Positions 476 to 61,059 of a stretch of DNA of 64,000 nt are shown piece by piece. The translations under genes and the position numbers were made by a program. A model generated the notes under the pieces. That model had not been told where the DNA came from. It did not search any database and saw nothing but the letters and a program-made list of their open reading frames with translations. Origin of the DNA: Hormiphora californensis (lineage: Eukaryota > Animalia > Ctenophora). The DNA lies in assembly GCA_020137815.1 (NCBI GenBank), contig CM035353.1:248001-312000 (forward strand). The letters run 5' to 3'. Position 1 is the stretch's first letter; every line of letters starts with the position of its first letter.

Positions 476-24899
<24,424 letters not shown>

Positions 24900-38035: not shown

Positions 38036-39887
38036 GAGGTTTTTGTATCGGCTCTCACTACACAGTGTGTGTGTGTGTGTGTGTATCTGTGTATCTATGT
38101 GTGTGTGTGTGAGGAAGATAATCACCTAAGGACCTGGCTTGTAGCAAGTGGTAGGAGAGAAAGGCTGAGAGAGAAAGGCAGAGAAGAGAAGAAGAGAGAG
38201 AGACGGAGAAGCAGAGAGAGAGAGAGGGAAGAGGAGAGAGAGATGGGAGAGAGAGTAGAGAGAAGAGAAGACGAGAGGAGCGAGAGAGAGACGAGAGAGA
38301 GAAAGAGAGAGAGAAGAGAGATGAGAGAGAGAGAGAGAGAGAGAGAAAGAGGAGAGAGCGATGAGAGAGAGAGGAGAGAGAGAGAGAGAGACGATAGAGA
38401 GAGAGAGAGAGAGCAAGCGGGAAGGCAGAGAGAGAGAAAGAGAGCCAGGGGGAAAGGCAGTGAGAGAGAGAGAGAGAAGGAGAGCCAGGGGGAAAGATAG
38501 ATAGGGAAACGCTGTGGGTACATTACAGAGAAAAATGGCTTACCTTACTCTCGTTAATTAAGCTCCTATATTTCAAGAAACTTTAAAATAAGCAACTTTT
38601 TTCTAAGAAACCACAAGAGTAAGCAATAAAAAACTAAACGAATTTCTCGTTTGTTGAGAAACTTAAGAAGTTAGTTGTTTCCTATTTTGTTGGGGTGTCT
38701 CTAAATTTTGGTATTATGAAACAACTCCTCTGCGCTATATTAGCTGACGTAATATAATAACAGGGATGACTTCGTAACCAAACATACATTGATCACCACA
38801 CCCGGCGCATTGGGGACGGGAACTGACCAGTTGTAGCCCAGGCGTGACCGAGGGGGATTCAGGAGGAACCACAGCAACCCTATTGATAACGTATCTTATT
38901 GGGTAAGGTAGTACGTGGACATAAATATCGGTCAATAGATATATACACAGGTAGCATAGCGCCTAGATGGTATAATCACACTGATAAGAAGGAAAACGAG
39001 AAGGGAATATCAACTTTTATGAGACTAGCACACCCATTGGGGCTTTTTGATAATCCACCCGGCTTCGCCGGGCGGTTCTTTTCGCCACTTTCAACGTCAA
39101 TAACACGGTTGCCATGGCAACTGAATTGGTAACTATGGGGACTGGAATGTTAAAGGTCATTCGAAAATATTAACAAACTTCCACTGGAAGTTCAAACAGT
39201 GTTAATAACAGCTTTACAGCTGAGGTTCGTTACGTTGCATTTCGTTTCACTTTTGCTTGTCTCAGACACCAAAAAGGGCTATTTTCCTCAATAAAATGCA
39301 ACTCAAATCTGTTTCTAGTTCTCATTTCCATCACACATGACCTCCCAGTTACCACTGAACCGTCTCCCGGGCCTGGCCTGGTCTCATTACTAAATTACAG
39401 CTACGTTTTTGTCCAATATTACCCCCCGCCCCACCCCCACCCACCCTCCCCCACCCACCTCTCCCAATATAGCGGACATTGCAAAACACCACACTACATA
39501 GACAATCCTTGTGTTTTGGTGCACTAAGTCGCTTATCGCGTGTAACAACTAACAAATGTTCTTATCTATCTCATCCGAATGGTCTTCTAGAACATTTTAC
39601 ACTCTACACTGCTACAATCTGCCCAACCCCTTGTTTGTGTTTGATCGTCTTCGTTTCCGTTTATCTTTATCACCATTGGAAATGTTTACACCTCTCATCT
39701 CATCACCAACAACATCACGGTACCAATCATCCATCAAGGTCGTAAGTTCACCTGTCCGTATTGTTTGTTCATTTATTGTGTACAGTTGATATTGTGAATG
39801 TAATTGAATATTCAATAATTAAGAGTAAGACAAGACATAGCTTGAGAGTGTGCCCCAGACAGACCAACATACGATAAATATCAAACC

Positions 39888-41081: not shown

Positions 41082-41826
41082 CTAATCGGACACAATCGAA
41101 CAGGCACAGGAATTCTTAGAAAGTCTGGAAACGGCAGCGGCTGCAGTTGGTCTTCACCTGAATGAAGGGAAGACTAAGTTTATGGCTACTGGTATAGAGG
41201 AACCTTCCCTCGTTAGCTCTACGGGAAACTATCTAGAACAAGTGGAAGATTTCGTTTACCTTGGTGCCCACCTTAAATCGACGGAGAAGGATTTTAACAT
41301 TAGGAAGGCTAAGGCCTGGGCAGCCTGTCATAGACTCAAAGGAATATGGAAAACTGACCTGAGAAGGAGCATTAAGGTAAACCTGTTCCGTACTACTGTA
41401 GAGGCTATTCTATTATACGGCGCTGAAACGTGGACCCTTACATCTACTATGGAGAAACAATTGGATGGCTGTTATAGTAGGATGCTACGCATGGCGCTTG
41501 GCATCAACTGGTGGGATAGGGTCTCTAATGAGGAAGTCTTCCAGAATGTCCCCAGAGTTTCTGAGACTGTGAGGACTCGTAGACTTAGGCTGGCTGGACA
41601 TGTCCACAGGCACGAGGAGCTAACAGCTCACCAACTGCTGTTTTGGGAACCTGATAGGGGCTCTAGAAGCCGGGGTAGACCCAAGAAAACCTATATTAAC
41701 CAGCTCAGGGAGGATACTGGCCTATCTAATGATGGCGATATCAAGAGGCTAATGGAAGATCGTGTGCTGTGGCGGACCGAACTGACTGCTCGGACAATGA
41801 AGCCGCCTTAAGTAAGTAAGTAAGTA
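41082..41826 (+). mobile_element. 5'-truncated RTE-clade LINE (RT C-terminal part)
   Basis: GLHLNEGKTKFM, EQVEDFVYLGA, ILLYGAETWTLT, RRLRLAGHV and RSRGRPKKTY motifs. The element ends in a (TAAG)n tail, typical of RTE. Confidence 0.9.
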
Positions 41827-43030: not shown

Positions 43031-43809
43031 CAGAAAAACTTCCTGGGTTCAAGGAAAACCTTGGTATGAAGGAATTCTATGACAGACCACCGGTGTGTGG
43101 CTATATGACGGTCCCTAATGAGTTTCGAGAGGCAGAAAGGAAGATGTACTGGTGTACTTTCTTTGTACATTTTCAAGAGCTTGGATGTCTGAGATTTTTG
43201 AAGAGTCCCATAGTGCACAGCAATACTCGAGTTTACTCCGTTTATCCAATCGATATGAAACTTAGTCAGTATGTGCATCTTGATGTCCTTTGGCCAGGGG
43301 TTCCCAGGAAACGGATTGGCAATATGAGAGTTGACTGGAGTTCTTAAAATTTCACGAAGTTTGAAGTTTTTCGTAGATTTTGGGGAAAATTGGGGGGGGA
43401 GGCCAATATCGGCCTTGAAATAAAATATGTAATAAATTATGCAGCATAAATCATTTGAATCAATTTATAATTGTGGAGTTAGTCCATACGATATAGATAT
43501 TCATCAGGGTCACTCGCAGCCGTCTTGCCCGGGCGCCGTTACGATCTGGGTGTTTGGAGGCCTGTTTACAGGTGCGCGCTGCCAAAAAAGTTGATTCACT
43601 AAAATGGCTCTAACCGCCAAACCACTCAACCGTTTTGGCTGATTCAAAGTTTATCTGGTAGGGAATGTCAAGGCCTAACCCCAACCCAAACCCCAACCCT
43701 AACCCTACTTTAGCCCTAACCCTAAAAAACCGTTTGTCAGCACTCCCAAAACACCCAGATTTTAACGCTGGCCGTCTTGCCCCTACCCCTTCCCCGAATC
43801 GGGGCCCCC

Positions 43810-44126
43810 GATGTCCCCTGATTGATTCAGTTATTGAGCGAACCATTGCAAATGATAGGCGCAGTCTGAGATATCGAACACAATCCTGTTTGGTATAGCC
43901 GGTTTTAGTGGATTTTCTGTTGGCCAGCTGTTTTAGAGTGTTCTTGAATTCTCGACCCAGTCCACCCGATGTTGACATGACAAGTGGAGTAAACACCGCC
44001 TTTTCAAGAAGAAGAACTCGTTGCAGATAAGCTTTCTTCTTCTCAGTTTCATGCTTCTCATACGTCTTCTGGATGCTCTGGTTTGCATTGGACTTTACCC
44101 TTGGATTAAATATCCTTACGTCAAAA
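43810..44126 (-). pseudogene. Restriction-like endonuclease C-terminal fragment of a CRE-type non-LTR retrotransposon
   Basis: FDVRIFNP...HETEKKKAYLQRV...FTPLVMSTSGGLG...RLRLSFAMVRS...IRG matches the pattern I recognise for the CRE-clade RLE domain. Confidence 0.7.
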
Positions 44127-44446
44127 TAATAATACAAATACAAATACAAATATACATTTATTGTCCGCTTTTCATTGTTCATATTTTAAAGAACAACACG
44201 AGTTCTGTTAGGTCTTGACTACTTGCATCACTTGGTGCGGACTTCGTCTCACTAACTCTCGTTTCAAAAGCGGTTAGTTCTATACCAAGGATTTCCAGAT
44301 GTTATTTCAAGATGATATTTTTCTGTAGGAGAACCAAGGAGCGGGAGAGAAGTCATACTCGTTGTAGCCTGCATCTCACCACACTGGCTGTACTTCTATA
44401 AGTAAAGCCCATCACACTCCACTGCACCACACCATACCGACTGTAC

Positions 44447-45116
44447 TGTAGTATCGGTGGTCAAAGGGCTGGTCGTCTAAAGCCGAGGTTCGTACCTGGT
44501 CAGACGCGATGACAGACGAGGTGAAGAGGTGTCGAGGTGAAGAGGTGAAGAGGTGTAGAGATGTAGAGATGTAGAGGTGTAGGGATGTAAATCGAGGGGA
44601 TTACCGTTGTCGGAGGTGACAGGTATTGTAGGTTGTAGTGTTGAAGGTTGTAAGGGTGGATGTAGAAGGGTTTTGTGAAGTTGTATTTATCAAAATAAAC
44701 GAACGGTTTTTGGGGTAACAAAACAAAAGGTAAAGCGTAAAACTTAGAAGTGAAGGCGGAGTTTGTTGTGATGATTAATATCTTTTCGCCTTCCCATCGT
44801 CATGCCCATTGGCTTTAGCCAATTAGGAATGCCGATGATCAAGTGCGGTTGTTCTGAGTTGTTCTGACTAGTTCTGACTAGTTCTGAGTAGTTCTGAGTT
44901 GTTCTGACTAGTTCTGACTAGTTCTGAGTAGTTCTGAGCTGTACTGACGTTATATAATAGCTGTTCTGTCTCTATGCTCTCTAGTTCTCTGTGGTTACAT
45001 AGCAACAGAGGGAGAGAGAGAGAGAGAGAGAGAGCAATAACGATTAACAGCTAGAGGTATAGAGAACTACTGATATATATCTCTCTGGGCTCTCACTATC
45101 AGCCCCATATAGTACA
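44447..45116 (-). repeat. 3' LTR (670 bp)
   Basis: Direct repeat of 59278-59946 (about 9 substitutions and 1 indel by eye). Contains a 10-bp gttctgacta tandem array at 44851-44940. Confidence 0.95.
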
Positions 45117-45133
45117 TCTCACCCCCCCCCTTT
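45117..45133 (-). other. Polypurine tract (plus-strand primer site)
   Basis: AAAGGGGGGGGGTGAGA on the - strand, directly 5' of the 3' LTR. Confidence 0.85.
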
Positions 45134-45324
45134 ATAAAGAAAGGGTGATTATCACAAACAAATCCTGTACACGTCTCACTGTGATCATAATAATCTATAG
45201 CGACAAAAGTGTTCAAAAAATTTTGATAGATAGTAAATTCTCTTTCTCGTATCTATTGTATCATACCACAAATTACTATGGGTCTTAAATCATTACCACG
45301 TATCTTTACTATCTTTTGCTTGAC

Positions 45325-45669
45325 ATGTCTCGCTTAATGCTGTCTTCCTATGAACTCAGCAAACTAGCAACATGTTTCTACCATATCTATGGTCTGGAGA
45401 GGACACACTTTATAAAGTCGATCCTCTCACCGCTACTACTCCAGCACATTGCGAGGAGCTGTATAATTAACGTCGCGGACCAAAATATACACCGAGTTAA
45501 GCAGATATTTCGTAACTTCTGGTATAGGCGGTCCTGGAATACGATCGCCCCCGACGGTTTAAACCCTCGTGGCGATCGTTATAGGTCGCTATTTAATAAC
45601 AAGGACTACTCCAGGAGACTGATTTATATGCCGGATGTTCTGGTGAACTTTCCTGCAATTCCAAATTAA
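45325..45669 (+). CDS. Putative antisense accessory ORF (114 aa), unknown function
   Basis: ATG-initiated, non-repetitive ORF next to the 3' LTR, followed by T-rich sequence. No recognisable motif. Confidence 0.35.
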   Translation: MSRLMLSSYELSKLATCFYHIYGLERTHFIKSILSPLLLQHIARSCIINVADQNIHRVKQIFRNFWYRRSWNTIAPDGLNPRGDRYRSLFNNKDYSRRLIYMPDVLVNFPAIPN

Positions 45670-46240
45670 TGGACCCCATTTTTCGAGACTAAGATTTTAT
45701 TTTGTAATTTTCTATTTATTTTTCTCTTATTGTACTCCTTTTTTCAACATTTTCTATCAGCTTCAGCGTGTTACTTTTAACGGGTACTCTACCCCCCGTT
45801 AATTACAGTTTGATGGTCTCGTATGTCCAAATGTGTCAATATTATTTATTGTTTTTGAAAAAAAAAATTTTTGTGTTTAATTTAGAGTTTTCGGGTGCCA
45901 CTGCAAGGTAAGTAACGACTCTAGTTTTCGGGTACTTACGGCACTAATTGTCTTTTCTATTTTCAGATAATTTTGTTTGGACGAGGACCATCTTACTCTC
46001 TATACTAAGGTATTTAAAATAGAAAGACTCTCTATTCGGTCGAGAGTTCTTAATTAGACTCTGGGTTCTGTTCAGAGTTCTTGCTATTTCCCCGTCTAAT
46101 GGCCGTTCAGAGTATTTGTGGAGTGCACTTGTAACCGATAATGTGGTGGTAGTTGCCGGAAACCCACAGCTGGAGCAATTAGCCAGGACCCGAAATAGCC
46201 TGGAAGTGGACCATTAAATTACGTTGGTTTATCTGAGAGC

Positions 46241-46855
46241 TTATTGGTCAGTTCTCCTGTTTAACCTCCTTCGCTGACACTGCGTAATATTTCTCTGTCT
46301 TCTGAGCTTGGTTACTGCAGTTCGTATCTCGTTAGGCAGTGTGAGGTTGATGCTCTCTTCCACTTCGGCCTTAGATTTGTCCAAGGTGGTGATATTGACA
46401 TCTCCATTCCTGACTTGGTGATGTAGTACTAGGGCTAGTTGTGACACTTTTCGCCTTGTACTGTTCCCCATTATCTGGTGTCTGGTTAACAGGCGTTTTG
46501 AGATTTCTGTGCAGGTGTGAATTGTGTCGTCCTTCTCACTCGTTGTAAGTTCACCATACACCGTGTCATTTAGCCCTTTACACCATATCTTTGTGATTTT
46601 CCTGGCGACCCTTATGTACTTTCTCACTAGATTTGCCACTGTGATTGTTTCCATCTTAGCGAGATATCTGGTGATGATTTCTGTTTTTGTCTCGCTATAC
46701 GTTGTTGTCCAGTGGGCGATGTTGAATCCGGCCTCTATCCCGCTTTCCAAAATTTCTCCGAGGATGAGATCTATGTATCCCTGGGAATTTGGCCATGTCT
46801 GGTCCAAGCAGGCCATAAGAAAGGCCGCGATATACCGGTACTTGGTGTACTCCAT
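46241..46855 (-). CDS. Orphan accessory protein of the LTR element (204 aa, Arg-rich C-terminus)
   Basis: Open ORF downstream of env2. The ATG at 46855 directly follows TTTCAG, and the protein ends KLRRQRNITQCQRRRLNRRTDQ. Confidence 0.7.
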   Translation of the reverse strand: MEYTKYRYIAAFLMACLDQTWPNSQGYIDLILGEILESGIEAGFNIAHWTTTYSETKTEIITRYLAKMETITVANLVRKYIRVARKITKIWCKGLNDTVYGELTTSEKDDTIHTCTEISKRLLTRHQIMGNSTRRKVSQLALVLHHQVRNGDVNITTLDKSKAEVEESINLTLPNEIRTAVTKLRRQRNITQCQRRRLNRRTDQ

Positions 46856-47270: not shown

Positions 47271-49829
47271 TTATTTATCTAGGTTTTGAATTAGATGTGA
47301 TAACCTACTTTGTGCATTTTCTGGTGTTATTTCAGCAGTGCTCCTAGTTCTAGCTCGTAGTCCTGATGACGAGGGAGCTTCTACTAGGTTGGATATATTT
47401 GGTGTGCTGAATGTTCTTTGTTGTTCTTGCACTTCTGAATGTACTAATTCATGTAGGTCATCATTTAGTTTTTCATACATTATATTTTCGGTGAGTTGTG
47501 TATGTCGTCCCGGGGCTGGTGGTGCCCTTGTGGGTTTAGTTATTGAACTCGCGTTAAGTAATGTGGCTGGTGTGCTAAATCTTACTTCCTTTGTGAGTTC
47601 TGGCATGCTTTGGAACCTGTTTTCTCTGTGTGTTATTAGAGTCTCAGGTCTAGGTGGTAGTGGCCTTTCTCGGTGAAGCATCTCTATTTCTTCGTTGTGT
47701 TGTGTTGTGATATTTTGTCCTGATGTGGTGTTGGGTGGATGTGTTGTGTTACTATCTGTGGCTGTTCTTATTACCGATTGTACTTGTTTCTTATATTTCC
47801 TTAATCTGTAACATTGTCTGGCTACTATCAGACCGATAATTGTGAGTACGGAGAGAGCAACGGCTGCTACTCCTGCCCATTTGACGACTTCATCTTGCCA
47901 ATTACCTGGTAAGGAATGCTTTTTGAACTCGTCAAATGACTTTTTCATTTCATGTAGTGTTACTTCCTGTTTATCTGTAATTTTAACTAGTGTGCTTATG
48001 TTGCGCCTCACAATTCCGGATGCGGTACGCGCTACGAATTCTTCCCAGGGAACAATTTCCGGCATTTCCATCTCAATTTGTATAGTTGGTTCTTGGATGG
48101 ATTGCAGGACTCTGTTTCCCAGGACTACCATGGAATATTTGCTCCAGGGTAGGAATGCAGTGCCTTGTTTGCTCATCTGAACTTTATCTAGAGTGGTGAT
48201 GGTACTAGTTGCTTTCATGGCACTGATTTCGTGTTCACTATAAATTAGGACCCCTGCTGTGGTGAAGCTTGCTCTATCCACGCTCTCCACTAGCCTAATT
48301 TCGCAGTCGCCTTGTTTGTTAAGACAAGGGACTGCTACATGTTCTTTAGTAGATTTATCTGTTGATGGCCTGCTACAGATTTTTAGACTATTCGACCGTG
48401 AGTAGCAATTATCATTAATGATCTGGTAAAATTGGTCCCTAACCATATAAACTTCTTGTGGTAGATCCAGTTGGACACAGGTTCCGTTGTTCCTGAATCC
48501 AACTTGTTCCACCGCATATCTATTGTAAATTGAGGACTGTCTTAGTCCGGGTACTGTGAGCACAAAATGGAATTTGAATGAGTGGTCGGTTCTGACCATG
48601 CCAACGAGTGTTAATTTGCCTTGGGTCAGTATGCTCTCCGGCTTCTCTTGGTAAATGGTGCCAGAGAACCTACTGTCTTGTACCAACTCTCTTATGTGTT
48701 CCATGGTGAGTACTTCAGGAAGTACCCCCATGGTAAGTTCTGATTTGAGGACACCTGACAAAATGGTACGTATTTGGTTTTTCCACTTTGTCATTTGTCG
48801 CTCTCTCACAATTTGATATGCAACCGTGTCAATATCGCACTTTATTGAGTCTAGTTCTTCTTCTAGGACCTTATAAATTTCAACAATTTCTCTATTAAAT
48901 TTCACTTGCTCGTTTAAAAACTTGGTGTTTCCTTCCGCGAACTCACGAAATTGTTGATCTAGTCTCTTGACGTGTTTTCTAGTTTGGGCAGCCTCATACA
49001 TTGTAGCACCCAAACCTAGTAGAGCTGGTATTCCGACTGCTGCCATTATTACCCCCACATAACGTTTTTCTCGAGTGTTTGTGGTGGTAATATTGGTATT
49101 CCCGGTTGTATGGAGTTGGTATGCATCTACTAAATTTTTGTATTGTTTGTGGGAGTTTTCCCAAATTTCGTCGATTTCTCTGGATGTTTCATTTTTAAAG
49201 AATTCGGCCAAAGGTGTTTGTGGTAAATCTAGGTAACCATTGCACATACTGGGCAATTGTGGTTTCATACTTTCAACATCTATTGTCAGACTTTTCACGA
49301 ATCCCGGAATTTTTTGCCAAACTTGATGAAGTTTGACATTGTTTCCGTACAGAATTTTGTAACTGTCTCTTTCAGTATGGCATTTGCCTCCACCACCAAG
49401 AGCTCCTATTGGCTCAATAATTGCCAGGGAACAAAGCATGTTAAAGCATCTTTCCATGCATTTTTCAAAACTTTTGGGATTTCTCTCGTAATGTTCCATC
49501 ATGTGATGGTTTGCTACCAATTGAGGGGCTTTTTGAACTGCCGTGGTTAGCCAGCGATAGTTAGGTCGGCAATGAACGAGGTCTATGTCTCCGTCAGATT
49601 TTCTATTACATTGGAATCTCTTCAAGTCGGGTATGGGTGATGATAAAAATACTGACGCAAAAACACTTTCTGCACCAGCGGCGACATAACCTTGTGGTTT
49701 TAGGACAACTCCGATGTCCTTAAGGACTATAGGATCTAGTTGTAGCTCGAATTGAGCCTGCTGGTTCTCTGCCTCCATAAGGGCCGTGCCCAATAATGGG
49801 AGAATAAGTAGACATATCAGTCTCATCAT
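47271..49829 (-). CDS. env: Env2: class I viral fusion (F-like) glycoprotein
   Basis: 852 aa with signal peptide MMRLICLLILPLLGTA. A furin site REKR (49073-49062) is followed directly by the hydrophobic fusion peptide YVGVIMAAVGIPALLGLGA and a heptad region. It then has a Cys-rich region, a TM (WAGVAAVALSVLTIIGLIVA) and a ~180-aa tail. The layout matches paramyxo/pneumovirus F and baculovirus F/errantivirus Env. Confidence 0.85.
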   Translation of the reverse strand: MMRLICLLILPLLGTALMEAENQQAQFELQLDPIVLKDIGVVLKPQGYVAAGAESVFASVFLSSPIPDLKRFQCNRKSDGDIDLVHCRPNYRWLTTAVQKAPQLVANHHMMEHYERNPKSFEKCMERCFNMLCSLAIIEPIGALGGGGKCHTERDSYKILYGNNVKLHQVWQKIPGFVKSLTIDVESMKPQLPSMCNGYLDLPQTPLAEFFKNETSREIDEIWENSHKQYKNLVDAYQLHTTGNTNITTTNTREKRYVGVIMAAVGIPALLGLGATMYEAAQTRKHVKRLDQQFREFAEGNTKFLNEQVKFNREIVEIYKVLEEELDSIKCDIDTVAYQIVRERQMTKWKNQIRTILSGVLKSELTMGVLPEVLTMEHIRELVQDSRFSGTIYQEKPESILTQGKLTLVGMVRTDHSFKFHFVLTVPGLRQSSIYNRYAVEQVGFRNNGTCVQLDLPQEVYMVRDQFYQIINDNCYSRSNSLKICSRPSTDKSTKEHVAVPCLNKQGDCEIRLVESVDRASFTTAGVLIYSEHEISAMKATSTITTLDKVQMSKQGTAFLPWSKYSMVVLGNRVLQSIQEPTIQIEMEMPEIVPWEEFVARTASGIVRRNISTLVKITDKQEVTLHEMKKSFDEFKKHSLPGNWQDEVVKWAGVAAVALSVLTIIGLIVARQCYRLRKYKKQVQSVIRTATDSNTTHPPNTTSGQNITTQHNEEIEMLHRERPLPPRPETLITHRENRFQSMPELTKEVRFSTPATLLNASSITKPTRAPPAPGRHTQLTENIMYEKLNDDLHELVHSEVQEQQRTFSTPNISNLVEAPSSSGLRARTRSTAEITPENAQSRLSHLIQNLDK

Positions 49830-51510
49830 AGGGGTCTTCTCGGGGTACCTCTGAAAAGTTTGGACGTTGACGACGCATAAAGATTCGTTCTGTGTTTTGA
49901 GGGTTTCTAACTGTAATTTTAATGTTGCTCATTAAATTTCCAACTTTTCCAAAATTTATGTGACTTATTGCCCAAATTAGCCCACACACTGCACCAGTAC
50001 GGGTTACCCAAAGAAGTAATCCGTCTACTATATGATACCATTTTGAACTACTGAATCCTGGTAAAACGATTTCAGGAGTGTCTAAATTTTGATTTTGGTC
50101 CCGTTCTATGTCGTTGATCCTATTTTCCATGTACTCTAGTGCAGCTTTTGACGGATCTGTGTGTGATATGTCTTTATTATCGTATATGAACTCGTCAGGA
50201 AAGTGGAATAGGTCATCAAATGTGTGTGTCTTAAATATGGGTATTTCGAGAGCATTGTTTGTAACTATGACATGTGGTGTGCTCCCGGGTTGGTAATTGT
50301 ACGTGTTACCATGTAATTCTAAGAATCTATTGATTGATGCTGAACAATTGGTTCGTGTTGATTGGTGATTGATGATATTTGTTTGTGGGTCGATAAAACC
50401 ACTTCTAAAATTTTCTGCTTCATTTCCTTTGTAAACTATCGGCACATCGTAGAAGCATTCATCTGTTTGTCTAAATTCAACGTGGTTGATTGGTCTACAT
50501 GGTGTTACTTGTATTATTCCACCAGTAATGTGGTCACTCTGTGCTATTATATATGGATTATTAAGCATGTTTCTTGCGTATGCGGTAGGGTTCTTTAGAG
50601 CCAGTGCTTTGGTGACATTTATTGTTAACTGTATTGCCTCACATAAATTAGCATATTTTGTTGTTTTCTCAGTCACTACGTCAGACAGGTAATTTAATTT
50701 AGTTAAAAGTTCTTCTCTCACTGCTTCAATGGTAATGGTATTTTCATTGCTGCTAACGGACTTCGGTGTAGTACTTGGGTTACTTATTTTTATTTTGAAG
50801 CCATTAGCGTAGTAATCTTTGTCTAATTTTGGTTTTTCTTGTAGATCTGCGCTGAACCCGATTTCAGCTATAACAATGTGGTTTCCTAGAATAATTGCGG
50901 GGTAGTTGCCAACGAGTAAATGTGCCTTATTTACGTCTAGTTTTGGTTGATAGATAATTGCTTCGTTATTACTAGTTAAACAGTATCCTGTGTTATAATT
51001 TTTGGAACATTTGGTCATATCACCTAGGTTTGATATTGTATTTTCGTTATGTGTTTTTGCTACGTAGCCTTTTTTGATAATACACTCTGTGATTGTGTTT
51101 GTTTTTGTCTTCAACCATTGTGATTCGCATTTCGGTTCTACGTGTCCTAATGTATTGGTTCTTCTGCCTAATGTATCTTCGCATGTCGAGTGGGTGATGT
51201 GCTCTCTATATTTGCTTTCTGGCCAGTAAACTTTTTTATTTGATTTGGTAGTCTCTTTCGACCCGAAAAAATTGTTGGAGACCTTGCACGTCTTTTCTGT
51301 GACTCTCATGGACTTTGCATTTACTCGGTACTCTTTAATGTTTCTTTTCCACAGTGTGACATTGTAGATTGTCGGGTTTGTGTTGTCACATTTAAACGAC
51401 TGTGGTACTTTGAATAATTGTTTGGCGGTTCGGCCATCGCATATCATGGCAGTACTGCTTGCTTCGCCAATCATGACAGCAATCAACACGGCTGATACTA
51501 AGCCCTTCAT
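49720..51510 (-). CDS. env: Env1: class III-like viral glycoprotein (herpes gB/chuvirus G-like)
   Basis: 596 aa from ATG 51510, with signal peptide MKGLVSAVLIAVMIGEASS and a Cys-rich ectodomain. The segment LCE...NPTAYARNML...GGIIQVTPCRPI...RQTDECFYDVPIVY...GFIDPQTNII...RTNC resembles the gB/chuvirus glycoprotein C-terminal ectodomain pattern. A hydrophobic segment lies near the C-terminus. Confidence 0.75.
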   Translation of the reverse strand: MKGLVSAVLIAVMIGEASSTAMICDGRTAKQLFKVPQSFKCDNTNPTIYNVTLWKRNIKEYRVNAKSMRVTEKTCKVSNNFFGSKETTKSNKKVYWPESKYREHITHSTCEDTLGRRTNTLGHVEPKCESQWLKTKTNTITECIIKKGYVAKTHNENTISNLGDMTKCSKNYNTGYCLTSNNEAIIYQPKLDVNKAHLLVGNYPAIILGNHIVIAEIGFSADLQEKPKLDKDYYANGFKIKISNPSTTPKSVSSNENTITIEAVREELLTKLNYLSDVVTEKTTKYANLCEAIQLTINVTKALALKNPTAYARNMLNNPYIIAQSDHITGGIIQVTPCRPINHVEFRQTDECFYDVPIVYKGNEAENFRSGFIDPQTNIINHQSTRTNCSASINRFLELHGNTYNYQPGSTPHVIVTNNALEIPIFKTHTFDDLFHFPDEFIYDNKDISHTDPSKAALEYMENRINDIERDQNQNLDTPEIVLPGFSSSKWYHIVDGLLLWVTRTGAVCGLIWAISHINFGKVGNLMSNIKITVRNPQNTERIFMRRQRPNFSEVPREDPYDETDMSTYSPIIGHGPYGGREPAGSIRATTRSYSP

Positions 51511-52093
51511 CTGAAAAACACAATCGATTGATGACTTTGTTATTTCATGCTCAAACGAGTGATCAATTCGCCTATTCACGAAATAAAGTTTCTCGATGAC
51601 TGTGTGGTCGACCTCTCCAGATGATTTGTGTTGTGTGATATGCGGAGTTCTCTTTAGTGCGGTGTGAAGTGTACCTTATTATTCATGTCAGTGTGGTGTG
51701 ATCTATAGATTATTATTTGTGCCGTTCTACTGTGTTTTGTGTTTGTTCCTTAATTTTACTCGCGTTACCCTTATTCTACCTGTTGTTGTGTGCTTTTTAG
51801 TGACTGGTGTGTACTTAATTGGACTTCTTATTGCTAATTTTTAATGAGGAGAGTGCTCCTCTTTTGCAGCCTTCTTTAGCAAAGGGAGGTCAATTAATTT
51901 TAGAGAAAATTTACTCAGTTTATGTCTGAGTTCTGAGTGTGAGACGAATGTGCTGACAATGAAGGGGATTACTGGCCCACCTTTGCTTCTAGACAAGTTC
52001 TTGACGATTCAAATAAATCATATCTTCCCTTGTCTTATTGCTTTATTTTGTTGTTGACGGTTTATCTTTTTTTTTTTAGCAATTCTCTCTCTA

Positions 52094-52537
52094 ATGGACG
52101 CCAGACAGGAAATCATTCGGCAGGTCCTCTGGGACTCTACCTTGACCTTGGTGGTGGAACGGTTGGGTTGGCCTGTAGACGCCTCAGCCGTTACGTTTTG
52201 TATGGTTGAGGCCCTACTAGCTGGGCATGCTAGACTGGTTTGTTCCCACCGCCTTCGGGATTTGTTGGAGTGCCAGGGGGCTGGTCACCCGACCCCCTTT
52301 TGGTCCGTGATCCCTTCTAGGAACGGGGTGCCGGTGGTCTATTGCCCCTGCTCCCTGTTTAGTTGGGCGATCAACAGGCCGGTCGCCATGGAGGAGTGTC
52401 ATGGGATTCTTCCCTTGACGCACCTCCAATGCGCTATATGTGAGGACACCCCGGAAGACATACCATGGACTTCCTTCTACGCCGACTGTGTTGGGTGTTC
52501 TCTGTGCGAGCGGCCGGGGACGCCTGTTGATCGGTGA
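52094..52537 (+). CDS. Antisense Cys/His-rich protein A (147 aa)
   Basis: GC-rich ORF island in AT-rich spacer, with a poly-T/AG acceptor upstream and AATAAA at ~52592. Paralogous to 52773-53255. Confidence 0.75.
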   Translation: MDARQEIIRQVLWDSTLTLVVERLGWPVDASAVTFCMVEALLAGHARLVCSHRLRDLLECQGAGHPTPFWSVIPSRNGVPVVYCPCSLFSWAINRPVAMEECHGILPLTHLQCAICEDTPEDIPWTSFYADCVGCSLCERPGTPVDR

Positions 52538-52772
52538 TCTCATGTAGGTGGACTTTATGCTTTTATGCTCTTTGTCTTTAATTGTGGCTCTAATAAATTT
52601 TTAAATTTTTCTAGTTTTGTAACGGTCATTTGGTATTCCGCTTGGCTTCAGGGTAAGGTGTGAACCTTGCTATTTGGTTGACACATTACACCCTTTTAGT
52701 CCCCTGTATATTTTCCTATATTCAATTTGTTCTCAATTTATTTCTAACACGTTTTTACTTTTTTAGAACATT

Positions 52773-53255
52773 ATGTCTTTCTTGACTATCGTCGGTGAGC
52801 TCCGGACCGTCTGGGAATTGGACTGTCCCCACGAGCGAATGGTCGCCTGGAACATACGCTTTGACTCGGTAGTGGGGCAGTGCGGGGTTCCCATCAACCC
52901 CGTTACTGTAAGTCGCTGCGACTTACAGTTTATTTTCGACGAGCTGGCACCTCTGATATGCCATCACCGGCTCGTCGAAATACTGTCGTGCCCATTAAAT
53001 GGGCACCCTCAATTTCAGGGAGAGCACTGCCTTTGTGGCTGGTGGCGAGCGGCGGTCTGTGCTCCGGACTGGGTCAGGCCCAATTCAACAGCTCCCTGGC
53101 CCGTCCGGTTCACCCGCTGCAGCTTACACCGCTGCAGGGCGGCTCCCCTTTTGGGGCCGCTATCGATTCGGCATTGGCTTTTCGACCATGAGTTCTGTGG
53201 GGATTGTGCCAACTGCCAGCCACCAACCTCGAGGACTCCGGAGCCCGACCGATAG
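52773..53255 (+). CDS. Antisense Cys/His-rich protein B (160 aa)
   Basis: Shares CxHRLxxxLxCxxxGHP, CxC, CxxC/H and CxxCxxC motifs with protein A. Acceptor ttttttag lies 6 nt before the ATG. Confidence 0.75.
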   Translation: MSFLTIVGELRTVWELDCPHERMVAWNIRFDSVVGQCGVPINPVTVSRCDLQFIFDELAPLICHHRLVEILSCPLNGHPQFQGEHCLCGWWRAAVCAPDWVRPNSTAPWPVRFTRCSLHRCRAAPLLGPLSIRHWLFDHEFCGDCANCQPPTSRTPEPDR

Positions 53256-53451
53256 TGGGTTATTTTTTCTGAATTTTATTATGCATTTTTTCCAATTTGT
53301 TTCATGTTTTTTTTCTAACTTGTTCTTATATTCAATTTTTCAGGGAGGACGGTGAGGGGGGACGGTGAAAGGTCTGCCGAGTGTTTCCAGTAAAGGTCTG
53401 CCGAGGTAATTACTTTTTAAATCATTGTTCCGTATTACCTACTGTTGTAGC

Positions 53452-56400
53452 TTATTTTGGCCCTGACATATCGTAATCTTTTAAATACGGAGGTAATTTT
53501 TTTAGCCTGTTTGACCTACGAAGTACAGGTGGTTCTGTGGTTTGTTCTACTTGTTTATTCTTTTCTTTTTCTGATGTGGCTGTGTGAGGTGTTGTTTTCT
53601 GTGTGACGGTTTCTTTTTTGTTAATGTGTGGTGTCGAGTCGGCTAATGATTCATCATCACTTTCCGAGTGAACGTGTACGTGAATGGCTGGCCTTTCCTC
53701 AACAGTGTCCGTGACACCGTCGATAGTAAGTTTTTCTGCTAAAGCTTCGGGGACAAATTTCATAAGATCGTGGTGTACGACCTTTTGCTTTCCTGATTCT
53801 ATATGTTTGATTAGATAATTATGATCAGATATAATTTTCTCAATTATGTATAATACCTTAAATCTAGATTTGAATTTATTATTAGCCATTTCTTTTGGAG
53901 GCAATGGTACTAGTATGGCTACATGATCACCTATTTTGTACTTAGTAATTTTGGCTGAGCGGTCATAGAACTTCTTAGCTTGCACCTGTTGTGCTTTAAG
54001 ACTTTTTTGTACTTGGCCATAGACTCCTTTCATTTCCCAGTATAAATTATGTGCATAATGACATTCATCTCTGAAGAACTGGGTTGACGTTGTTTCATAA
54101 ATTAGGTCATTTGGTGCTCTAAGTTCTCTACCAAAGAAAAGGTAGTTTGGCGTGTACCCTGTCGCCTGATGTATCGTACCATTGTACGATGATATTGCTA
54201 TGGGGAAATATTTTTCCCATTGATTAGGGTTATTATGCGTCAATTTTGAGAGTATGGCTTTCAAAGTTTTATTAACCCTTTCCACTAAGTTTGTGGCTGG
54301 GTGATAAGGCGTTGTGCGAATCTTGGTGATTCCCAGCAAGCTATAAAAGTTTTGGATGAACTCGGCTCCATCAATTGATGAACCTTGATCACTGAGGACC
54401 TGTTCTGGTACTCCAAAAGGAAGTACGTGAGACATCAAGAACGCTCTGGCTAGTGTCGGGGCTTTAATATCACTAACAATTGCACCTGTGACGTACTTAG
54501 TGAACGCACAGGTACTGAGGAGTATGTGTTTAGTCGCCCCTGAATTCTTTGTTATGGGTCCCATCGTGTCTATGTAGCATCTATAGTTAGGAATATTTCG
54601 CTGTTCGTAAAGTTTCATGACCATTTTGGGTTTCTTATGAAAACCTTTGTTGTGGAAGAAACACTCTTCACACGCTTTAGTGTGTAATGTGATCTCTTCC
54701 GTCATGTTAGGCCACCAAAATTTTAACATAATGGCCCGTTTAGTTTTGAGTATGCCTGGGTGACCTGATTTGTCATGTTTCAACTCCATGATATCTTGTT
54801 TCAGGGTTTGCGGTGTACAGAGGAGCAACCGGAATTTACCGCTGGATTCGCTCATGTACTTAATGGCCACTAGTCCTTGGAGGGTAAGTTGAAGTCTTTT
54901 AAATTTGTTATAGTAAATTTTCAACTCTTTTGTGTAATTTGAGTCGGCTGGTTGTGCGGGACGTTCTTTTTGAACGAGCCATGACCTTACTTCTGACAAA
55001 GACGTATCGTTAATCTGCGCTTGGTATAGAGGTTCATGGTCATGGAACTCTAGTGATATCGGATTCTCAAACGTACCTATCTCTTCTTTTTTCTCTTTAG
55101 TAATTATTTGGATTATCTCTTCTAGATGACTACTGGGCTCATCATCAATCTTTAGATTGATGGCATCTTTAATTAGGCCAATGACTGTCTGTGGTGACTC
55201 TTCTTGCTTTTTAATTGTGTTTTCCCAATATTCCCATAAATCGCCTGATTTCTGGGGTAAATTACGGGAAAGAAAATCTGCTAATTGATTATCTTTTCCG
55301 GGTGTGTGCTCCAATACAAAGTTGTATTCTGATAACTTAATGGACCAACTGAGCAAAAGTCTACATGTGGTTTTGTTAAGATACCCGGATTGTGTGAGTG
55401 ATTTCATATCAGTGAATACTACAAATGGTTCTTGAGCACCGTATACTAGATGATCATATTTCTGTATAGCCCATAAAACAGCTCTCATTTCGAGTTTAAA
55501 ACTTGGCCATTTCTGCTCTGCCGGTGAGAGTACCCTACTCCCGTAACTAATCGGCCTAAAGAACTCTTGACCATTTTGGTCCGTGAATTTGTGAGTTATT
55601 GCACAACCTAATCCTTGAAAGCTGGCATCACACCATAAGTAAAATTTCTTTTTAACGTCAGGCATGACAAGTATGGGCATAGTGGTAAGCTTATTTTTAA
55701 TCATTTCAAAAGCGTGTTGTGCTTCGGGTGTGGCTTTAATGTTGTAACTTGTTCCGGTTAACAAGTCAGTGAGTGGTTTAATTTCGGAAGCACAATTTTG
55801 AAGTAAATTTCGGAACCAATTTATTGCCCCCAAAAAACTCATTAATTTCTTTTTAGTGGTGGGGAATGGGATTTCGCGAACTGCTCTAACTTTTTCTTTG
55901 TCCGCTTCATATCCCTCTTTACTAAGCCATGCACCTAGGAATTTAACTTTTTTCACTAGTAATGAGCATTTGGTGGGTGATATTTTCAAGCCTCCTTGCC
56001 TAATGCAGTCGAATACTTGTTTCAAGTTGATGAGCATCTGATCTGTCGAATCTGTACCTATGAGGATATCATCTAGGTACACTTGTATGTTGTTAGGCAA
56101 ATGCTGAAATATCATGGTTAATGCTTGACAGAAATAACTGGGTGCATTTTTTAGACCAAAGCCAAGGCGGTTCTGCTCGAAGAGACCTACTCCAGGGACA
56201 TTCCATGCTGTTTTGTGTTTATCAGACTCTTTTATGCGAAGGCTCATGTAACCTTTTGTGAGATCGAGGGATGAGTAGTATTCCTTCCCTCCTACATGAG
56301 CAACAACTACGTCGAGAGGCGGTATACTAGAAGTAAATGACTCTGTTTTAGCATTGAGTTGGCGATAATCGGTACATATACGTACGTCATCTGAATCTTT

Positions 56401-57516
56401 TTTCTTGACTATGACTGTGGGTGCACTATAGGCAGATTGGGATGGTTGAATGACCCCTATGTCTAGTAATGCTTGTATTTCCTTGCGAACTTGAGGTAAC
56501 AGATGTATCGGTATGCGTCTGGGAGGCAATGCTACAGGAATATCATCTTTTAAATTAATTTCTGCTTCCAAAATATTAGTGAGCCCTATGTCATATTTGT
56601 GAGATGAGAATATGTCTAAATATTCACTAACTAGTTCTTTAATTTTATTTTTAGTTTCGCTATTAAGGTGTTCGTTAGTGTCGATTTTTAGTTCTCGGAT
56701 AACTTTTGCTAACTTTGTAGTGGGTGAAACTACTTCACTAATGTTCTTAATTGCTTTTTCTACCGGTGTGAGGTATCCGAAGATTGTACCGGCTGGGAAG
56801 AAATATTCAGCCTGCTCATCAGTGTTCTCAAGTGTGATAGGTATCTCGGACTCATTAACATCTACTAAACATGAAGGTGGGTCATCTTTCTCTCTCGGCC
56901 AGAACAATGTACTTGGTGTATATACATATGTGCCACTATTTATGGGACTATCTATTGCACTAGTGTTTAGGCCAATGCACGTGACTGTGTGTGTCTTACC
57001 TATGCCAATATTAGTGTTAGCTTTTGACTTAACAAGAATTGTCTGATCTCGGGCCTTGTGAATGATTATTGGTACTTTATGGGGTCCTTTTCCAAGAGTC
57101 ATATTTGACAAATCTACTACAAGCCCGTTATCTATGAGGAAGTTAGAGCCTAAGACCAAAGGTGCTATTATCTCATCAATGATTATGAAATCAAGGTTGA
57201 ATTTTAGATTGCCTAGTTGTAATGGAACGTTTTTGATGGTCCCTAAAACTCTAAGATTGTGACCCGTCGCACCGATTAATTTGTACTTCGTTGCTTCTAT
57301 ACTACTGGTAGGTATTTGTAATTTATCGAGCATCGATTTAGACATGCAATTAAGCACTGCGCCGCTATCTATTAGTAATTTCGCGTCTTGACTATTGATT
57401 TTCCCTGCCGCGAATAGTGAATTAGTGTGCTTGTCTGCTATTGTTAAAATGGGCGACGCGGGTACAAAGTCACGTGCGGTAGCCTCGGTCGAGGGCCGAG
57501 GCACACTTAGTTTAAA
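53452..57516 (-). CDS. pol: Pol polyprotein (protease, RT, RNase H, integrase), expressed by -1 frameshift
   Basis: Protease LLIDSGA; RT LDLTKGY, FGLKNAP and YLDD; RNase H WCDAS. Integrase has HHCC (H..SGHPG...CEEC) and a D-D-E core (YIDTMGP, SDQGS, VERVN). No stop codons. Confidence 0.97.
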   Translation of the reverse strand, partial: FKLSVPRPSTEATARDFVPASPILTIADKHTNSLFAAGKINSQDAKLLIDSGAVLNCMSKSMLDKLQIPTSSIEATKYKLIGATGHNLRVLGTIKNVPLQLGNLKFNLDFIIIDEIIAPLVLGSNFLIDNGLVVDLSNMTLGKGPHKVPIIIHKARDQTILVKSKANTNIGIGKTHTVTCIGLNTSAIDSPINSGTYVYTPSTLFWPREKDDPPSCLVDVNESEIPITLENTDEQAEYFFPAGTIFGYLTPVEKAIKNISEVVSPTTKLAKVIRELKIDTNEHLNSETKNKIKELVSEYLDIFSSHKYDIGLTNILEAEINLKDDIPVALPPRRIPIHLLPQVRKEIQALLDIGVIQPSQSAYSAPTVIVKKKDSDDVRICTDYRQLNAKTESFTSSIPPLDVVVAHVGGKEYYSSLDLTKGYMSLRIKESDKHKTAWNVPGVGLFEQNRLGFGLKNAPSYFCQALTMIFQHLPNNIQVYLDDILIGTDSTDQMLINLKQVFDCIRQGGLKISPTKCSLLVKKVKFLGAWLSKEGYEADKEKVRAVREIPFPTTKKKLMSFLGAINWFRNLLQNCASEIKPLTDLLTGTSYNIKATPEAQHAFEMIKNKLTTMPILVMPDVKKKFYLWCDASFQGLGCAITHKFTDQNGQEFFRPISYGSRVLSPAEQKWPSFKLEMRAVLWAIQKYDHLVYGAQEPFVVFTDMKSLTQSGYLNKTTCRLLLSWSIKLSEYNFVLEHTPGKDNQLADFLSRNLPQKSGDLWEYWENTIKKQEESPQTVIGLIKDAINLKIDDEPSSHLEEIIQIITKEKKEEIGTFENPISLEFHDHEPLYQAQINDTSLSEVRSWLVQKERPAQPADSNYTKELKIYYNKFKRLQLTLQGLVAIKYMSESSGKFRLLLCTPQTLKQDIMELKHDKSGHPGILKTKRAIMLKFWWPNMTEEITLHTKACEECFFHNKGFHKKPKMVMKLYEQRNIPNYRCYIDTMGPITKNSGATKHILLSTCAFTKYVTGAIVSDIKAPTLARAFLMSHVLPFGVPEQVLSDQGSSIDGAEFIQNFYSLLGITKIRTTPYHPATNLVERVNKTLKAILSKLTHNNPNQWEKYFPIAISSYNGTIHQATGYTPNYLFFGRELRAPNDLIYETTSTQFFRDECHYAHNLYWEMKGVYGQVQKSLKAQQVQAKKFYDRSAKITKYKIGDHVAILVPLPPKEMANNKFKSRFKVLYIIEKIISDHNYLIKHIESGKQKVVHHDLMKFVPEALAEKLTIDGVTDTVEERPAIHVHVHSESDDESLADSTPHINKKETVTQKTTPHTATSEKEKNKQVEQTTEPPVLRRSNRLKKLPPYLKDYDMSGPK
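57482..57516 (-). promoter_or_regulatory. -1 programmed ribosomal frameshift signal
   Basis: T TTA AAC (57516-57510) in the gag frame just before the TAA stop, then a 7-nt spacer and a GCCTCGG/CCGAGGC hairpin. Pol is in the -1 frame. Confidence 0.85.
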
Positions 57517-59015
57517 TCTTGATCCTTGAAGATATTCTCCACCAGAGCCATGTTGTATGTCTTTTCTTGGTCCGGGAAGCCGCTGTTTCCTGGGCCGTCG
57601 TCAATAGCCAGCTGTGCCATGGGTGCCGTTATGGCGTGTTGCATCATATTGATGGGGCGTTGCTGTTGTTGCTGTTGTTGTTGTTGGGCCGCATTGTTGG
57701 GTGCTCGCCAATTACCGGGTGGTGCAGTAGTAGTCTGGTACTGGTTCGGGTTTTGTTTCCACTGGTTTTGAGTGTTCTGGTAATTAGGCTGGTAATTGGG
57801 ACGGTAATTGGGGCGGTAGTTGGGGCGGTAGTTGTCCCTATTGTTGGGACGGTAGTTGTCCCGATTGTTGGGTCGGTAGTTGGGGCGGTTGTCGTTCCTT
57901 CCCCGGTTACCATTGTAGTTGTTTCTCCCCTGGTTATTGTTGTTATTGCCACGGTTGTTGTTGTTATTCCAGCCTCTGCTATTTCCTCCTCTGCTGTTGT
58001 TTCCCTGCTGGTACTGCCTGACCCTTCTCTCTGTTGATCGGCAATCACTGGTCCAGTGCCACCCTCCGCATTTTCGACATGCTGATGGTGGTTGGGTATC
58101 TCGTTGCTGTCGAGTTGGGCACTCCCTGGCGAAGTGTCCATCCTTTCCACATGAGTAGCATTGATTAGATGGCGGTCTTGCAATGACCTTCTCTTTCCCC
58201 GTCAAGTGTGAAACTGGAGCATCTTGGATAGCTAGTACCGGTGGAGGTTGTTCAACTTCCACTGTTGCCGGTATCGGGAGTGTGACGATTCCCTTGTGAG
58301 AGTCGTCATTCTGGGAGCGTAGAAGTAGAGCCTCCTTCAAAGCCAGTTCCTTCTCCATGGTGATTTCAGCAAGTTGATGTTCGGTGATGTCCTTCAAACA
58401 TGAAACTTCAGCGGCTAGTCGCGCGTCACTCAACCCGCTCAAAAAAGCATCTCGCAACATCTTCTGTGTGAACTTCTTCTCCATCGTGCGATCGGCGCGG
58501 GACAGTTCGGGCGTGTCAACGCTGTCAAAATATTTGTCTACTATTTTGACTAATCGTTCGAAAAAATCGAGCGCAGTTTCATCCCGCCCCTGTGTAGCTT
58601 TACGTAACTCTACTTTAGCTGACATTTTTTGTGTTTTTGGAGTAAGAGTTTTAATTATTGTTGGTTTGAGATCTGACCAATCTGCTTTCTGGTCTTCTGT
58701 CAAATCAAGCGCTGCTAGTTTATCTCGGCAGCTCTCAGGCAGGTAAGTGATGAAATTGCTGTACGCCTTTTCATCACTTAGTGAGATGAGTGTTCTATAA
58801 TCATCAAATGTTTTAATGAATTTAGACACACTTTTTCCCAAAACATAGTTAGTCGGCTGTTTCGCTGCTGCGTAACTTGCCGTTAACTCCCTACGATAAT
58901 CGCGGAACTTGGTTTTGACCTGTTCCTCCGAAAATGTAGCATGATGGCTTGTTGCACTAGGGTCTGTTACCCCGGGCAAAATGCCATTTTTATTATCTTT
59001 ACTTTCGTCCCCCAT
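57507..59015 (-). CDS. gag: Gag (capsid, two zinc knuckles, N/Q/R-rich C-terminus)
   Basis: First ATG at 59015 (the frame is open from 59255). Has a major-homology-like segment ATQGRDETALDFFERL and knuckles CYSCGKDGHFAREC and CRKCGGWHWTSDC. Confidence 0.92.
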   Translation of the reverse strand: MGDESKDNKNGILPGVTDPSATSHHATFSEEQVKTKFRDYRRELTASYAAAKQPTNYVLGKSVSKFIKTFDDYRTLISLSDEKAYSNFITYLPESCRDKLAALDLTEDQKADWSDLKPTIIKTLTPKTQKMSAKVELRKATQGRDETALDFFERLVKIVDKYFDSVDTPELSRADRTMEKKFTQKMLRDAFLSGLSDARLAAEVSCLKDITEHQLAEITMEKELALKEALLLRSQNDDSHKGIVTLPIPATVEVEQPPPVLAIQDAPVSHLTGKEKVIARPPSNQCYSCGKDGHFARECPTRQQRDTQPPSACRKCGGWHWTSDCRSTERRVRQYQQGNNSRGGNSRGWNNNNNRGNNNNNQGRNNYNGNRGRNDNRPNYRPNNRDNYRPNNRDNYRPNYRPNYRPNYQPNYQNTQNQWKQNPNQYQTTTAPPGNWRAPNNAAQQQQQQQQQRPINMMQHAITAPMAQLAIDDGPGNSGFPDQEKTYNMALVENIFKDQDLN

Positions 59016-59258: not shown

Positions 59259-59273
59259 CAAGTCACAGCACCA
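59259..59273 (-). other. Primer binding site, tRNA-His-like
   Basis: TGGTGCTGTGACTTG lies 4 nt inside the 5' LTR end. It is complementary to the typical eukaryotic tRNA-His 3' end (TGGTGCCGTGACTCG) with two G:U pairs. Confidence 0.75.
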
Positions 59274-59277: not shown

Positions 59278-59946
59278 TGTAGTATCGGTGGTCAAAGGGC
59301 TGGTCGTCTAAAGCCGAGGTTCGTACCTGGTCAGACGCGGTGACAGACGAGGTGAAGAGGTGTCGAGGTGAAGAGGTGAAGAGGTGTAGAGATGTAGAGA
59401 TGTAGAGGTGTAGGGGTGTAGATCGAGGGGATTACCGTTGTCGGAGGTGACAGGTATTGTAGGTTGTAGTGTTGAAGGTTGTAAGGGTGGATGTAGAAGG
59501 TTTTTGTGAAGTTGTGTTTATCAAAGTAAACGAACGGTTTTGGGGTAACAAAACAAAAGGTAAATTGTAAAACTTAGAAGTGAAGGCGGAGTTTGTTGTG
59601 ATGATTAATATCTTTTCGCCTTCCCATCGTCATGCCTATTGGCTTTAGCCAATTAGGAATGCCGATGATCAAGTGCGGTTGTTCTGAGTTGTTCTGACTA
59701 GTTCTGACTAGTTCTGAGTAGTTCTGAGTTGTTCTGACTAGTTCTGACTAGTTCTGAGTAGTTCTGAGCTGTACTGACGTTATATAATAGCTGTTCTGTC
59801 TCTATGCTCTCTAGTTCTCTGTGGTTACATAGCAACAGAGGGAGAGAGAGAGAGAGAGAGAGAGCAATAACGATTAACAGCTAGAGGTATAGAGAACTAC
59901 TGATATATATCTCTCTGGGCTCTCACTATCAGCCCCATATAGTACA
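59278..59946 (-). repeat. 5' LTR (669 bp)
   Basis: Direct repeat of 44447-45116. Confidence 0.95.
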
Positions 59947-61059
59947 AAACCCGAGTAAATATCCAATTGTGGAGATGAGGAGTCTGGGAGAGAGGTCCTC
60001 CATTGTCTATGCCTTTGTAATGAATATCTCTGCGATTCTTGGTGGTGCTATTTCCGGGGTAACAGTACCAGAGAGGTCAGAAGGGCCACCCTGATCGTTA
60101 CTACTCTTGGTACTTGGATGTTGATGACTGTACTTCTCATTGTACCCCGTCTTGTGAAGTGAGGATGTGGTCCTGATATATGTACTGACACTGACACATT
60201 TTAGTGTGCAATCATCATTGCCATCATTAATGATTTTTCTTTATTTTAGCATACATTACAAGTAAAGAAGAATCATAATTCGGACTCGAATATTTAAGTT
60301 AACCTACGCCCTCCATAGGAAGATATTCTTCTTAATTGTTGACTTCCGAACATTCATTACAAATTTTTATGACACTGTCGTTTATCTTGACTCATATTAG
60401 AATGTGTGATAACAGCCTATGGTATGGTCTTTTTTTGACGAGCAGATGTGGTATGTGTTCATGAATCTCTGATCAGAGGTACGTCATTGGCTCATTGGCG
60501 AATAATTGGAAATCTCATTTCCTTCGATTGCAAATTCTCTTCCAGACATGTCTCGCTCAGTCATGTCTTTCTCTCACATCTTTCTCTCTTGCTCTCTCTC
60601 GCTCTCTCTCCTTCTATCTCTCTATATCTCTCTCTGTCTCTGTCTCTCTCTCTATCGTTAAATCATTGTCCTCACTATTTCACTATAATATCCAATTAAA
60701 TAGTCAATCACTGTGAGGTAAAAACTGAGACACATCTAGACTTTTTCCAAAAAGAAACAAAACACAGTTCAGCTAAAAATAGACACTATCGCTTTTCCAC
60801 CGCCCCCAACATTCTCTACTCTGGGTTAGGAAGAACAGTCCCTCCCAATAAGGTTAAAGAGTTCGATCCGTGACAAGCGGTGCAACACATTGCCTCTCTT
60901 TCCCTCTCTCCTTGCCTGCAGATTACATACATATAATAACAACGACACGGTGATCAATCAGGCGGGGCCTAAAAAAGACAGTCAATACTAGATCTCTCAT
61001 CAGTTGATTCACATTTGGTGATCCTTCTCTTGCAAGTACGTCGACATCTTAACAGAGAA

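Follow-up and report, generated by a model that had tools for sequence, protein, structure and literature searches.

Several Ty3/gypsy elements of plants and fungi, among them maize Grande (gene23), rice RIRE2, Retand (the TRP28 ORFs) and Botrytis Boty, carry additional antisense ORFs, the so-called aORF-3R (PMC7264820, PMC11963269). In animals other than insects, the env-carrying members of the Ty3/gypsy group have been described as "ancient errantiviruses" by Chary and Hayashi (PMC13524379). The table of that work assigns a single env type to each element (1291 F and 221 HSV, 1512 altogether), and the words "antisense", "accessory" and "zinc" are absent from its main text. Furthermore, bdelloid rotifer LTR elements harbor ORF3s other than env (PMC5408684), and orchid gypsy elements carry AlkB (PMC9289625). 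Like the ORFs presented here, these are extra Ty3/gypsy genes, but they encode recognisable enzymes or coiled-coil/TM proteins, and the consulted sections of the rotifer study name no antisense ORF. Among the matches listed for animal env-bearing gypsy elements in the literature, no antisense protein genes were described in the titles and abstract openings.

The window, i.e. the whole stretch of DNA that was analysed (64 kb), contains on its minus strand a 15.5-kb element, which is an intact, young, envelope-bearing Ty3/gypsy element. Its parts on the sense strand are the following:

59278..59946, minus strand: 5' LTR, which starts with TG and finishes with CA
59262..59273, minus strand: primer-binding site, TGGTGCTGTGAC
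57507..59015, minus strand: gag, 502 aa, with a CCHC knuckle
53452..57345, minus strand: pol, with RT, RNase H and integrase; its frame stays open further upstream, across a DSG motif of the protease
49720..51510, minus strand: env1, 596 aa, a class III (gB/chuvirus-like) glycoprotein of Pfam family PF24664
47271..49829, minus strand: env2, 852 aa, F-type-like by eye
46241..46855, minus strand: sense ORF of 204 aa, downstream of env2
45117..45133, minus strand: polypurine tract
44447..45116, minus strand: 3' LTR, which starts with TG and finishes with CA

The two LTRs agree in 659 of 668 aligned bases (98.6% identity), and the primer-binding site is putatively tRNA-His-like. The slippery heptamer TTTAAAC (57510-57516, minus strand) stands directly ahead of the gag stop, with pol in a shifted frame, and the domain order of pol (RT, RNase H, integrase) is of the Ty3/gypsy type. 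Of the features by which an errantivirus is recognised, the LTRs, primer-binding site, polypurine tract, gag and the order of pol are present, together with an intact env of the F or HSV/gB type; this is env1, which scores 64.3 bits with PF24664 (the cut-off being 27) and has two relatives at 43%, both unnamed. In env2, a signal peptide, a REKR site, a hydrophobic peptide and a TM segment near residue 650 were read by eye; the label of F-type rests on that reading, since the comparison with Pfam and PDB gave zero matches. The overlapping env1 and env2 (together 47271-51510, minus strand) are two envelope-like ORFs within one element, an observation possibly more interesting than the antisense pair discussed below. 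An acceptor TTTCAG abuts the ATG of env1, and the same is true of the 204-aa sense ORF, an arrangement that would suit either cis-splicing or spliced-leader trans-splicing. In spite of the high identity of the LTRs, no target-site duplication flanks the element (44437-44446 compared with 59947-59956); it could be a recombinant of two insertions or the product of an assembly join. Rfam and ARAGORN gave no matches, and scans for related loci with integrase, RT, env1 and the antisense pair as queries returned no usable locus.

As in the ancient errantiviruses (PMC13524379), the layout is LTR-gag-pol-env, the env is of class III or F-type, and the element is intact and young. Compared with the elements of that work, however, the Hormiphora element has two env-like ORFs and four further ORFs. 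It has at least seven ORFs and several acceptors. Two of these further ORFs lie antisense between pol (minus strand, ending at 53452) and env1 (minus strand, starting at 51510), the place and strand that the earlier note had given for them:

52773..53255, plus strand: ORF B, 160 aa, paralogous to A, without lysine, pI 6.4, C-terminus TPEPDR
52094..52537, plus strand: ORF A, 147 aa, Cys-rich, without lysine, pI 5.1, C-terminus TPVDR

The position of A and B, antisense to gag-pol and between pol and the 3' LTR, is that of an aORF-3R. They share with the elements of this kind the presence of extra ORFs antisense to gag-pol and downstream of pol, which often lack database relatives (PMC7264820, PMC11963269). 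The aORF-3R hosts described in these sources are plants and fungi, the elements have no fusogenic env and their ORFs contain other domains (TRP28, SMC), whereas the host is here likely an animal. Moreover, A and B differ from aORF-3R in being located between pol and env, duplicated, Cys-rich, lysine-free and outside any Pfam family.

That A and B are paralogs, as had been claimed from an alignment by eye, was borne out by BLASTP (20 of 58 positions identical, E 9e-10) and by the shuffle check, in which the local score of 98 was reached by 0 of 5000 shuffles (mean 33, maximum 77). In the MAFFT alignment, with an overall identity of 29%, 12 of the 16 Cys/His of A are paired with the same residue in B, a number reached by none of 2000 shuffles. 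To this extent the correspondence of ligand motifs along the pair is real. It does not hold for the C-terminal halves alone, which are not significant: their local score was matched by 1539 of 5000 shuffles, and when they were anchored and aligned globally the score was reached by 96 of 3000 shuffles and the number of Cys/His pairs by 254 of 2000. The homology signal is carried by the N-terminal halves, and the CxC, CxxC and CxxCxxC matches are therefore believable only as a continuation of it. No similarity is left between the two ORFs at the DNA level, while the protein alignment is significant; the duplication is thus old, as had also been proposed. No further paralog of A and B occurs within the window.

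We consider it very probable that A and B are real protein-coding accessory genes. When the bases were shuffled 20000 times, a stop-free frame as long as A arose in 117 of the shuffles and one as long as B in 109. The five other frames across each ORF contain 3-8 stops apiece, so no overlapping gene explains them. The best-fit GC blocks (52097-52553 for A, 52791-53259 for B) end within 3-18 nt of the ORF borders, with 58-60% GC inside and 28-34% outside (the spacers have about 30%). At fourfold sites, 101 of 154 positions in A and B are G/C (66%) versus 454 of 1297 (35%) in gag, pol, env1 and env2 (P 6e-13). Together with the alignment and the splice acceptors presented next, these GC islands and this codon bias support the claim that the ORFs are genuine and accessory. 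The features that could serve their expression are as follows:

45908..46009, plus strand: predicted antisense leader (intron, exon and donor) near the 3' LTR
51511..52093, no strand: spacer of 583 bp between the head-to-head ORF A and env1
52055..52079, plus strand: predicted splice acceptor (T-tract and TAG), 14 nt ahead of the ATG of A
52592..52597, plus strand: AATAAA, possible poly(A) signal, 55 nt past the stop of A
52742..52766, plus strand: predicted splice acceptor (T-tract and TAG), 6 nt ahead of the ATG of B
53344..53405, plus strand: predicted small 3' exon beyond ORF B (acceptor ending at 53343, donor starting at 53406), a prediction only

By a crude custom score, applied to a T-rich strand, the acceptors of A and B rank 2 and 12 among 615 AG sites of the same strand. 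The predicted plus-strand intron of the leader (45908-45966, 59 nt) has the textbook form AG/GTAAGT ... CTAAT ... TTTCAG and is followed by a predicted exon of 43 nt (45967-46009) without ATG and by a donor at 46010. The predicted leader, taken together with the small exon beyond B, suggests an antisense unit that is spliced. Two starts of transcription can be envisaged. When read on the plus strand, the 3' LTR shows CCAAT and TATATAA and is a possible antisense promoter. The ATGs at 45278, 45325 and 45813-45831 would fall in a leader begun in that LTR, which is a problem for the simplest LTR-driven antisense mRNA. The geometry of the 583-bp spacer makes it a possible bidirectional internal promoter; no TATA was found in it. 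Internal env promoters are known in the Tor elements of Oikopleura (PMC4402516). An in-frame fusion of A and B through weak donors at the end of A was also considered and fails by hand reading.

The RNA contigs came from two studies, and five of the seven listed runs, which were picked with this stretch, were used; the contigs are about 99% alike to the window, and their depth is below 4. Over ORF B there are contigs X3 (52860-53105) and X5 (52990-53193, oligo-dT), and over the end of A and the spacer, X6 (52475-52692, oligo-dT) and X2 and X3 (52567-52704). They cover 334 of the 483 nt of B and 63 of the 444 nt of A, and in these covered parts no stop or frameshift and a single missense difference are listed. 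It should be noted that the contigs carry neither strand nor splice joint, and that oligo-dT priming on A-rich spacers of the genomic RNA would look alike. Gaps in the coverage of other parts of the element carry no weight either way. Three contigs run beyond the AATAAA at 52592, to about 52700, and the predicted leader intron is spanned in unspliced form by one contig of X6 (45868-46018). The substitution sites listed over 52475-53193 number four and fall in 52582-53104; all show T>C, equivalent to A>G when read on the genomic strand, and could be alleles or A-to-I editing. Loose contig ends before 52567 and 50364, both with TTGTGTTTGA, were considered as a spliced leader and rejected; we take this sequence to be a library adaptor.

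With respect to the proteins, their description as Cys/His-rich is right for cysteine (24 in A and B versus 11.4 expected, P 0.0006) and not for histidine, which is not enriched (13 versus 10.3). The shared ligand pattern is C-x13-C-x-H-x7-C-x4-H, followed by CxC, Cxx(C/H) and CxxCxxC. From the conserved Cys/His, both proteins are predicted to bind zinc, which we regard as probable; the twelve shared ligands would fill three sites. Their shared C-terminus is TP-x(1-2)-DR, in agreement with the remark that both end in DR. The net charge is -7 in A and -2 in B, with no run of three K/R and no TM segment. Lysine is absent from all 307 residues of A and B, while the nine other ORFs counted contain 4-125 lysines; after correction for base composition 4.7 would be expected (P 0.006-0.009), a feature noticed post hoc among 20 amino acids, and tyrosine is equally depleted (2 versus 9.2). 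The absence of lysine is thus a lead, not proof. By a published definition, a lysine desert spans 150 aa or more, or half of the sequence or more, without any lysine (PMC10665810); both proteins are 100% lysine-free, and the 147 aa of A are just under the 150-aa size floor.

The searches returned no relative. Whole A and B hit 0 Pfam families at E up to 10, and their halves only DUF6408 at E 0.44; NCBIfam and PDB sequences contained no relative, and a profile of the pair gave 0 hits at E 0.001 against 1.84 billion representatives. Among homolog candidates of near length, 0 of 7 and 0 of 18 were accepted. The ESM Atlas offered nothing usable (best 0.86, unnamed), and an exact sequence look-up was also blank. 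From the metagenomes, we dropped a wrong-frame match over bacterial genes (L001), a locus with the same matched range (L002) and a short match of 38% (L003), as well as a 24-residue match in a bacterial MAG (L004). No profile match was obtained for the SWIM, Zn2Cys6, zf-CXXC, RING and paramyxovirus V families, and a pattern scan found neither a BC-box nor a RING pattern. Likenesses seen by eye to paramyxovirus V, the RecQ zinc site, zf-CXXC, SWIM, E1A and NS5A were rejected, since none is present in both paralogs and Pfam supports none. The AlphaFold2 models are unusable (pLDDT 44.9 for A with B, 32.3 for B alone), and the best Foldseek values with the low-confidence model of A (E 2.3 for viral structures, 5.3 for PDB) are meaningless. 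A and B make up a new family of orphan proteins; the slot that they occupy is of a known kind, and the element around them is unusually gene-rich.

Lentiviral Vif and adenovirus E4orf6 are zinc-binding ubiquitin-ligase adaptors. They resemble A and B in being small Cys/His proteins without known cellular homologs and accessory to replication; there is no sequence match and A and B have no BC-box, and the comparison concerns the proposed mode of action only. Of the three functions that had been suggested for the pair, i.e. silencing suppressors, ubiquitin-ligase adaptors and transcription regulators, the adaptor fits best, given that there is no lysine and the net charges are -7 and -2. With these features and the TP-x-DR end, an HBZ-like binder of DNA or a suppressor that binds RNA agrees less well than a zinc-stabilised protein acting as adaptor or decoy within the ubiquitin system. 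Our preferred reading, which we hold only tentatively, is that A and B could be zinc-stabilised accessory adaptors acting in the host ubiquitin system as counter-defence. Antisense transcription would begin in the 3' LTR or in the spacer beside env1, and the transcript would be spliced to the acceptors at 52079 and 52766, with each ORF likely on its own mRNA. Through their 12 shared Cys/His the products would bind up to three zinc ions, and they would bind proteins and not nucleic acid, the neutral to acidic charge arguing against direct binding of the latter. Their partner would be a ubiquitin ligase, the lack of lysine would spare the adaptor from its own tagging, the duplication would have yielded two targets, and the activity would likely remove or block a host defence factor. 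Lysine deserts have been reported in cullin-RING substrate receptors (PMC10665810), and FEM1 proteins recognise Arg at the C-terminus as a degron residue (PMC10767929, PMC10943247). Against the ubiquitin reading, there is no ligase motif in A and B, the lysine gap is modest, the DR end comprises only two residues and no structure is usable.

It is less likely, and on balance we think it unlikely, that A and B regulate the transcription, splicing or export of the element itself through host cofactors, in the manner of HBZ, Tat, Rev or Grande gene23. The slot and strand are those of the plant antisense aORFs, one of which, Grande GENE23, encodes a nuclear protein (PMC7264820). A and B share an LxxLL-like motif, which reads LRDLL in A and LVEIL in B and occupies corresponding positions of the alignment, and an element with so many ORFs and acceptors needs staged expression. 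Yet neither protein has a basic region, a zipper, an NLS-like run or an Arg-rich motif, both pI values are below 7, and no Pfam DNA-binding domain was found. HTLV-1 HBZ and APH-2 are similar to the pair as antisense genes of a retro-transcribing element, possibly driven by the 3' LTR and spliced, but HBZ is a basic bZIP protein and A and B are Cys-rich. The analogy with HBZ that had been drawn thus survives for position and strand and fails for the protein itself, in view of its charge and the lack of a Pfam hit.

Small-RNA silencing is the main defence of animals against such elements, and small Cys-rich silencing suppressors exist in plant RNA viruses. With these precedents, A and B could be suppressors with dsRNA, small RNA or Argonaute/Piwi as their direct binding partners, and each contains one GW dipeptide. 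We find this quite unlikely, because the dipeptides (at 25 in A and 89 in B) do not align, the proteins are acidic to neutral, unlike RNA-binding suppressors, and no family matched. Neither a basic RNA-binding surface nor a conserved GW, the marks of the Cys-rich viral suppressors, is found in the pair.

It is distinctly improbable that A and B are mere passengers, two GC-rich genes that were captured together from a host or another virus and are useless to the element. Their codon bias departs from that of gag, pol and the env genes and comes close to that of a TMEM131-like host ORF, in which 395 of 703 fourfold sites are G/C (56%); in addition, one copy was examined and relatives in other elements were not found. 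However, the GC islands extend no further than the ORFs, and the spacers are element-like, each ORF has an acceptor of its own, a third antisense ORF is patterned alike, and the 1.84 billion representatives contained no host or viral homolog. Finally, that the antisense RNA itself is the product (a self-limiting dsRNA), with chance or dead frames, is very improbable: micropia is among the elements with non-coding antisense RNAs (PMC7264820) and dsRNA editing could give the four T>C sites, but T-rich DNA is expected to yield T>C alleles, the depth is below 4, and a paralogy visible in protein and not in DNA, the Cys enrichment and the codon bias require translation.

The third antisense ORF is the following:

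45325..45669, plus strand: ORF of 114 aa, basic, pI 10.1, with a loose BC-box-like stretch, LQHIARSCI

Its GC block (45317-45676) matches its borders, and a stop-free frame of this length appeared in 37 of 20000 shuffles. The BC/SOCS-box-like stretch was spotted by a regular expression only, and the Pfam SOCS-box gave no match in this ORF.

Accessory genes against host restriction are a mark of complex vertebrate retroviruses. A bolder version of the counter-defence reading, which we offer as a speculation and consider rather doubtful, is that an invertebrate Ty3/gypsy lineage may have become independently a "complex retrovirus": its sense strand would encode two different fusogens and its antisense strand a spliced counter-defence operon, in which lysine-free twin zinc proteins of a new fold would hijack or decoy ubiquitin ligases, possibly through an Arg C-degron and with the help of the third antisense, BC-box-like protein. 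A dedicated antisense set in an animal Ty3/gypsy element would represent the strategy of such retroviruses outside Retroviridae, and the partners of A and B would lead to new factors with which a marine invertebrate acts against retroelements. A new zinc fold may also be represented by the pair. Should A and B turn out to be cargo or ordinary aORFs, they would only add another orphan family to a slot that is already known.

Elsewhere in the window, the TMEM131-like host gene (28110-32483, minus strand) is a single uninterrupted frame of 1457 codons; with this gene, and with the DNA present in runs from seawater and marine RNA libraries, the host is likely a marine animal. Two long open frames on the plus strand (2212-3276 and 14230-15743) look GPCR-like by eye. 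Two fragments on the minus strand (41086-41811 and 43610-44185) resemble, by eye, the C-termini of non-LTR retrotransposons. Minisatellite arrays occupy 7638-11136, 17433-19969 and 37074-38083, with units of 32, 70/77 and 29 nt, respectively, and the 32-nt array flips its orientation near 9133-9237, which results in a long inverted repeat.
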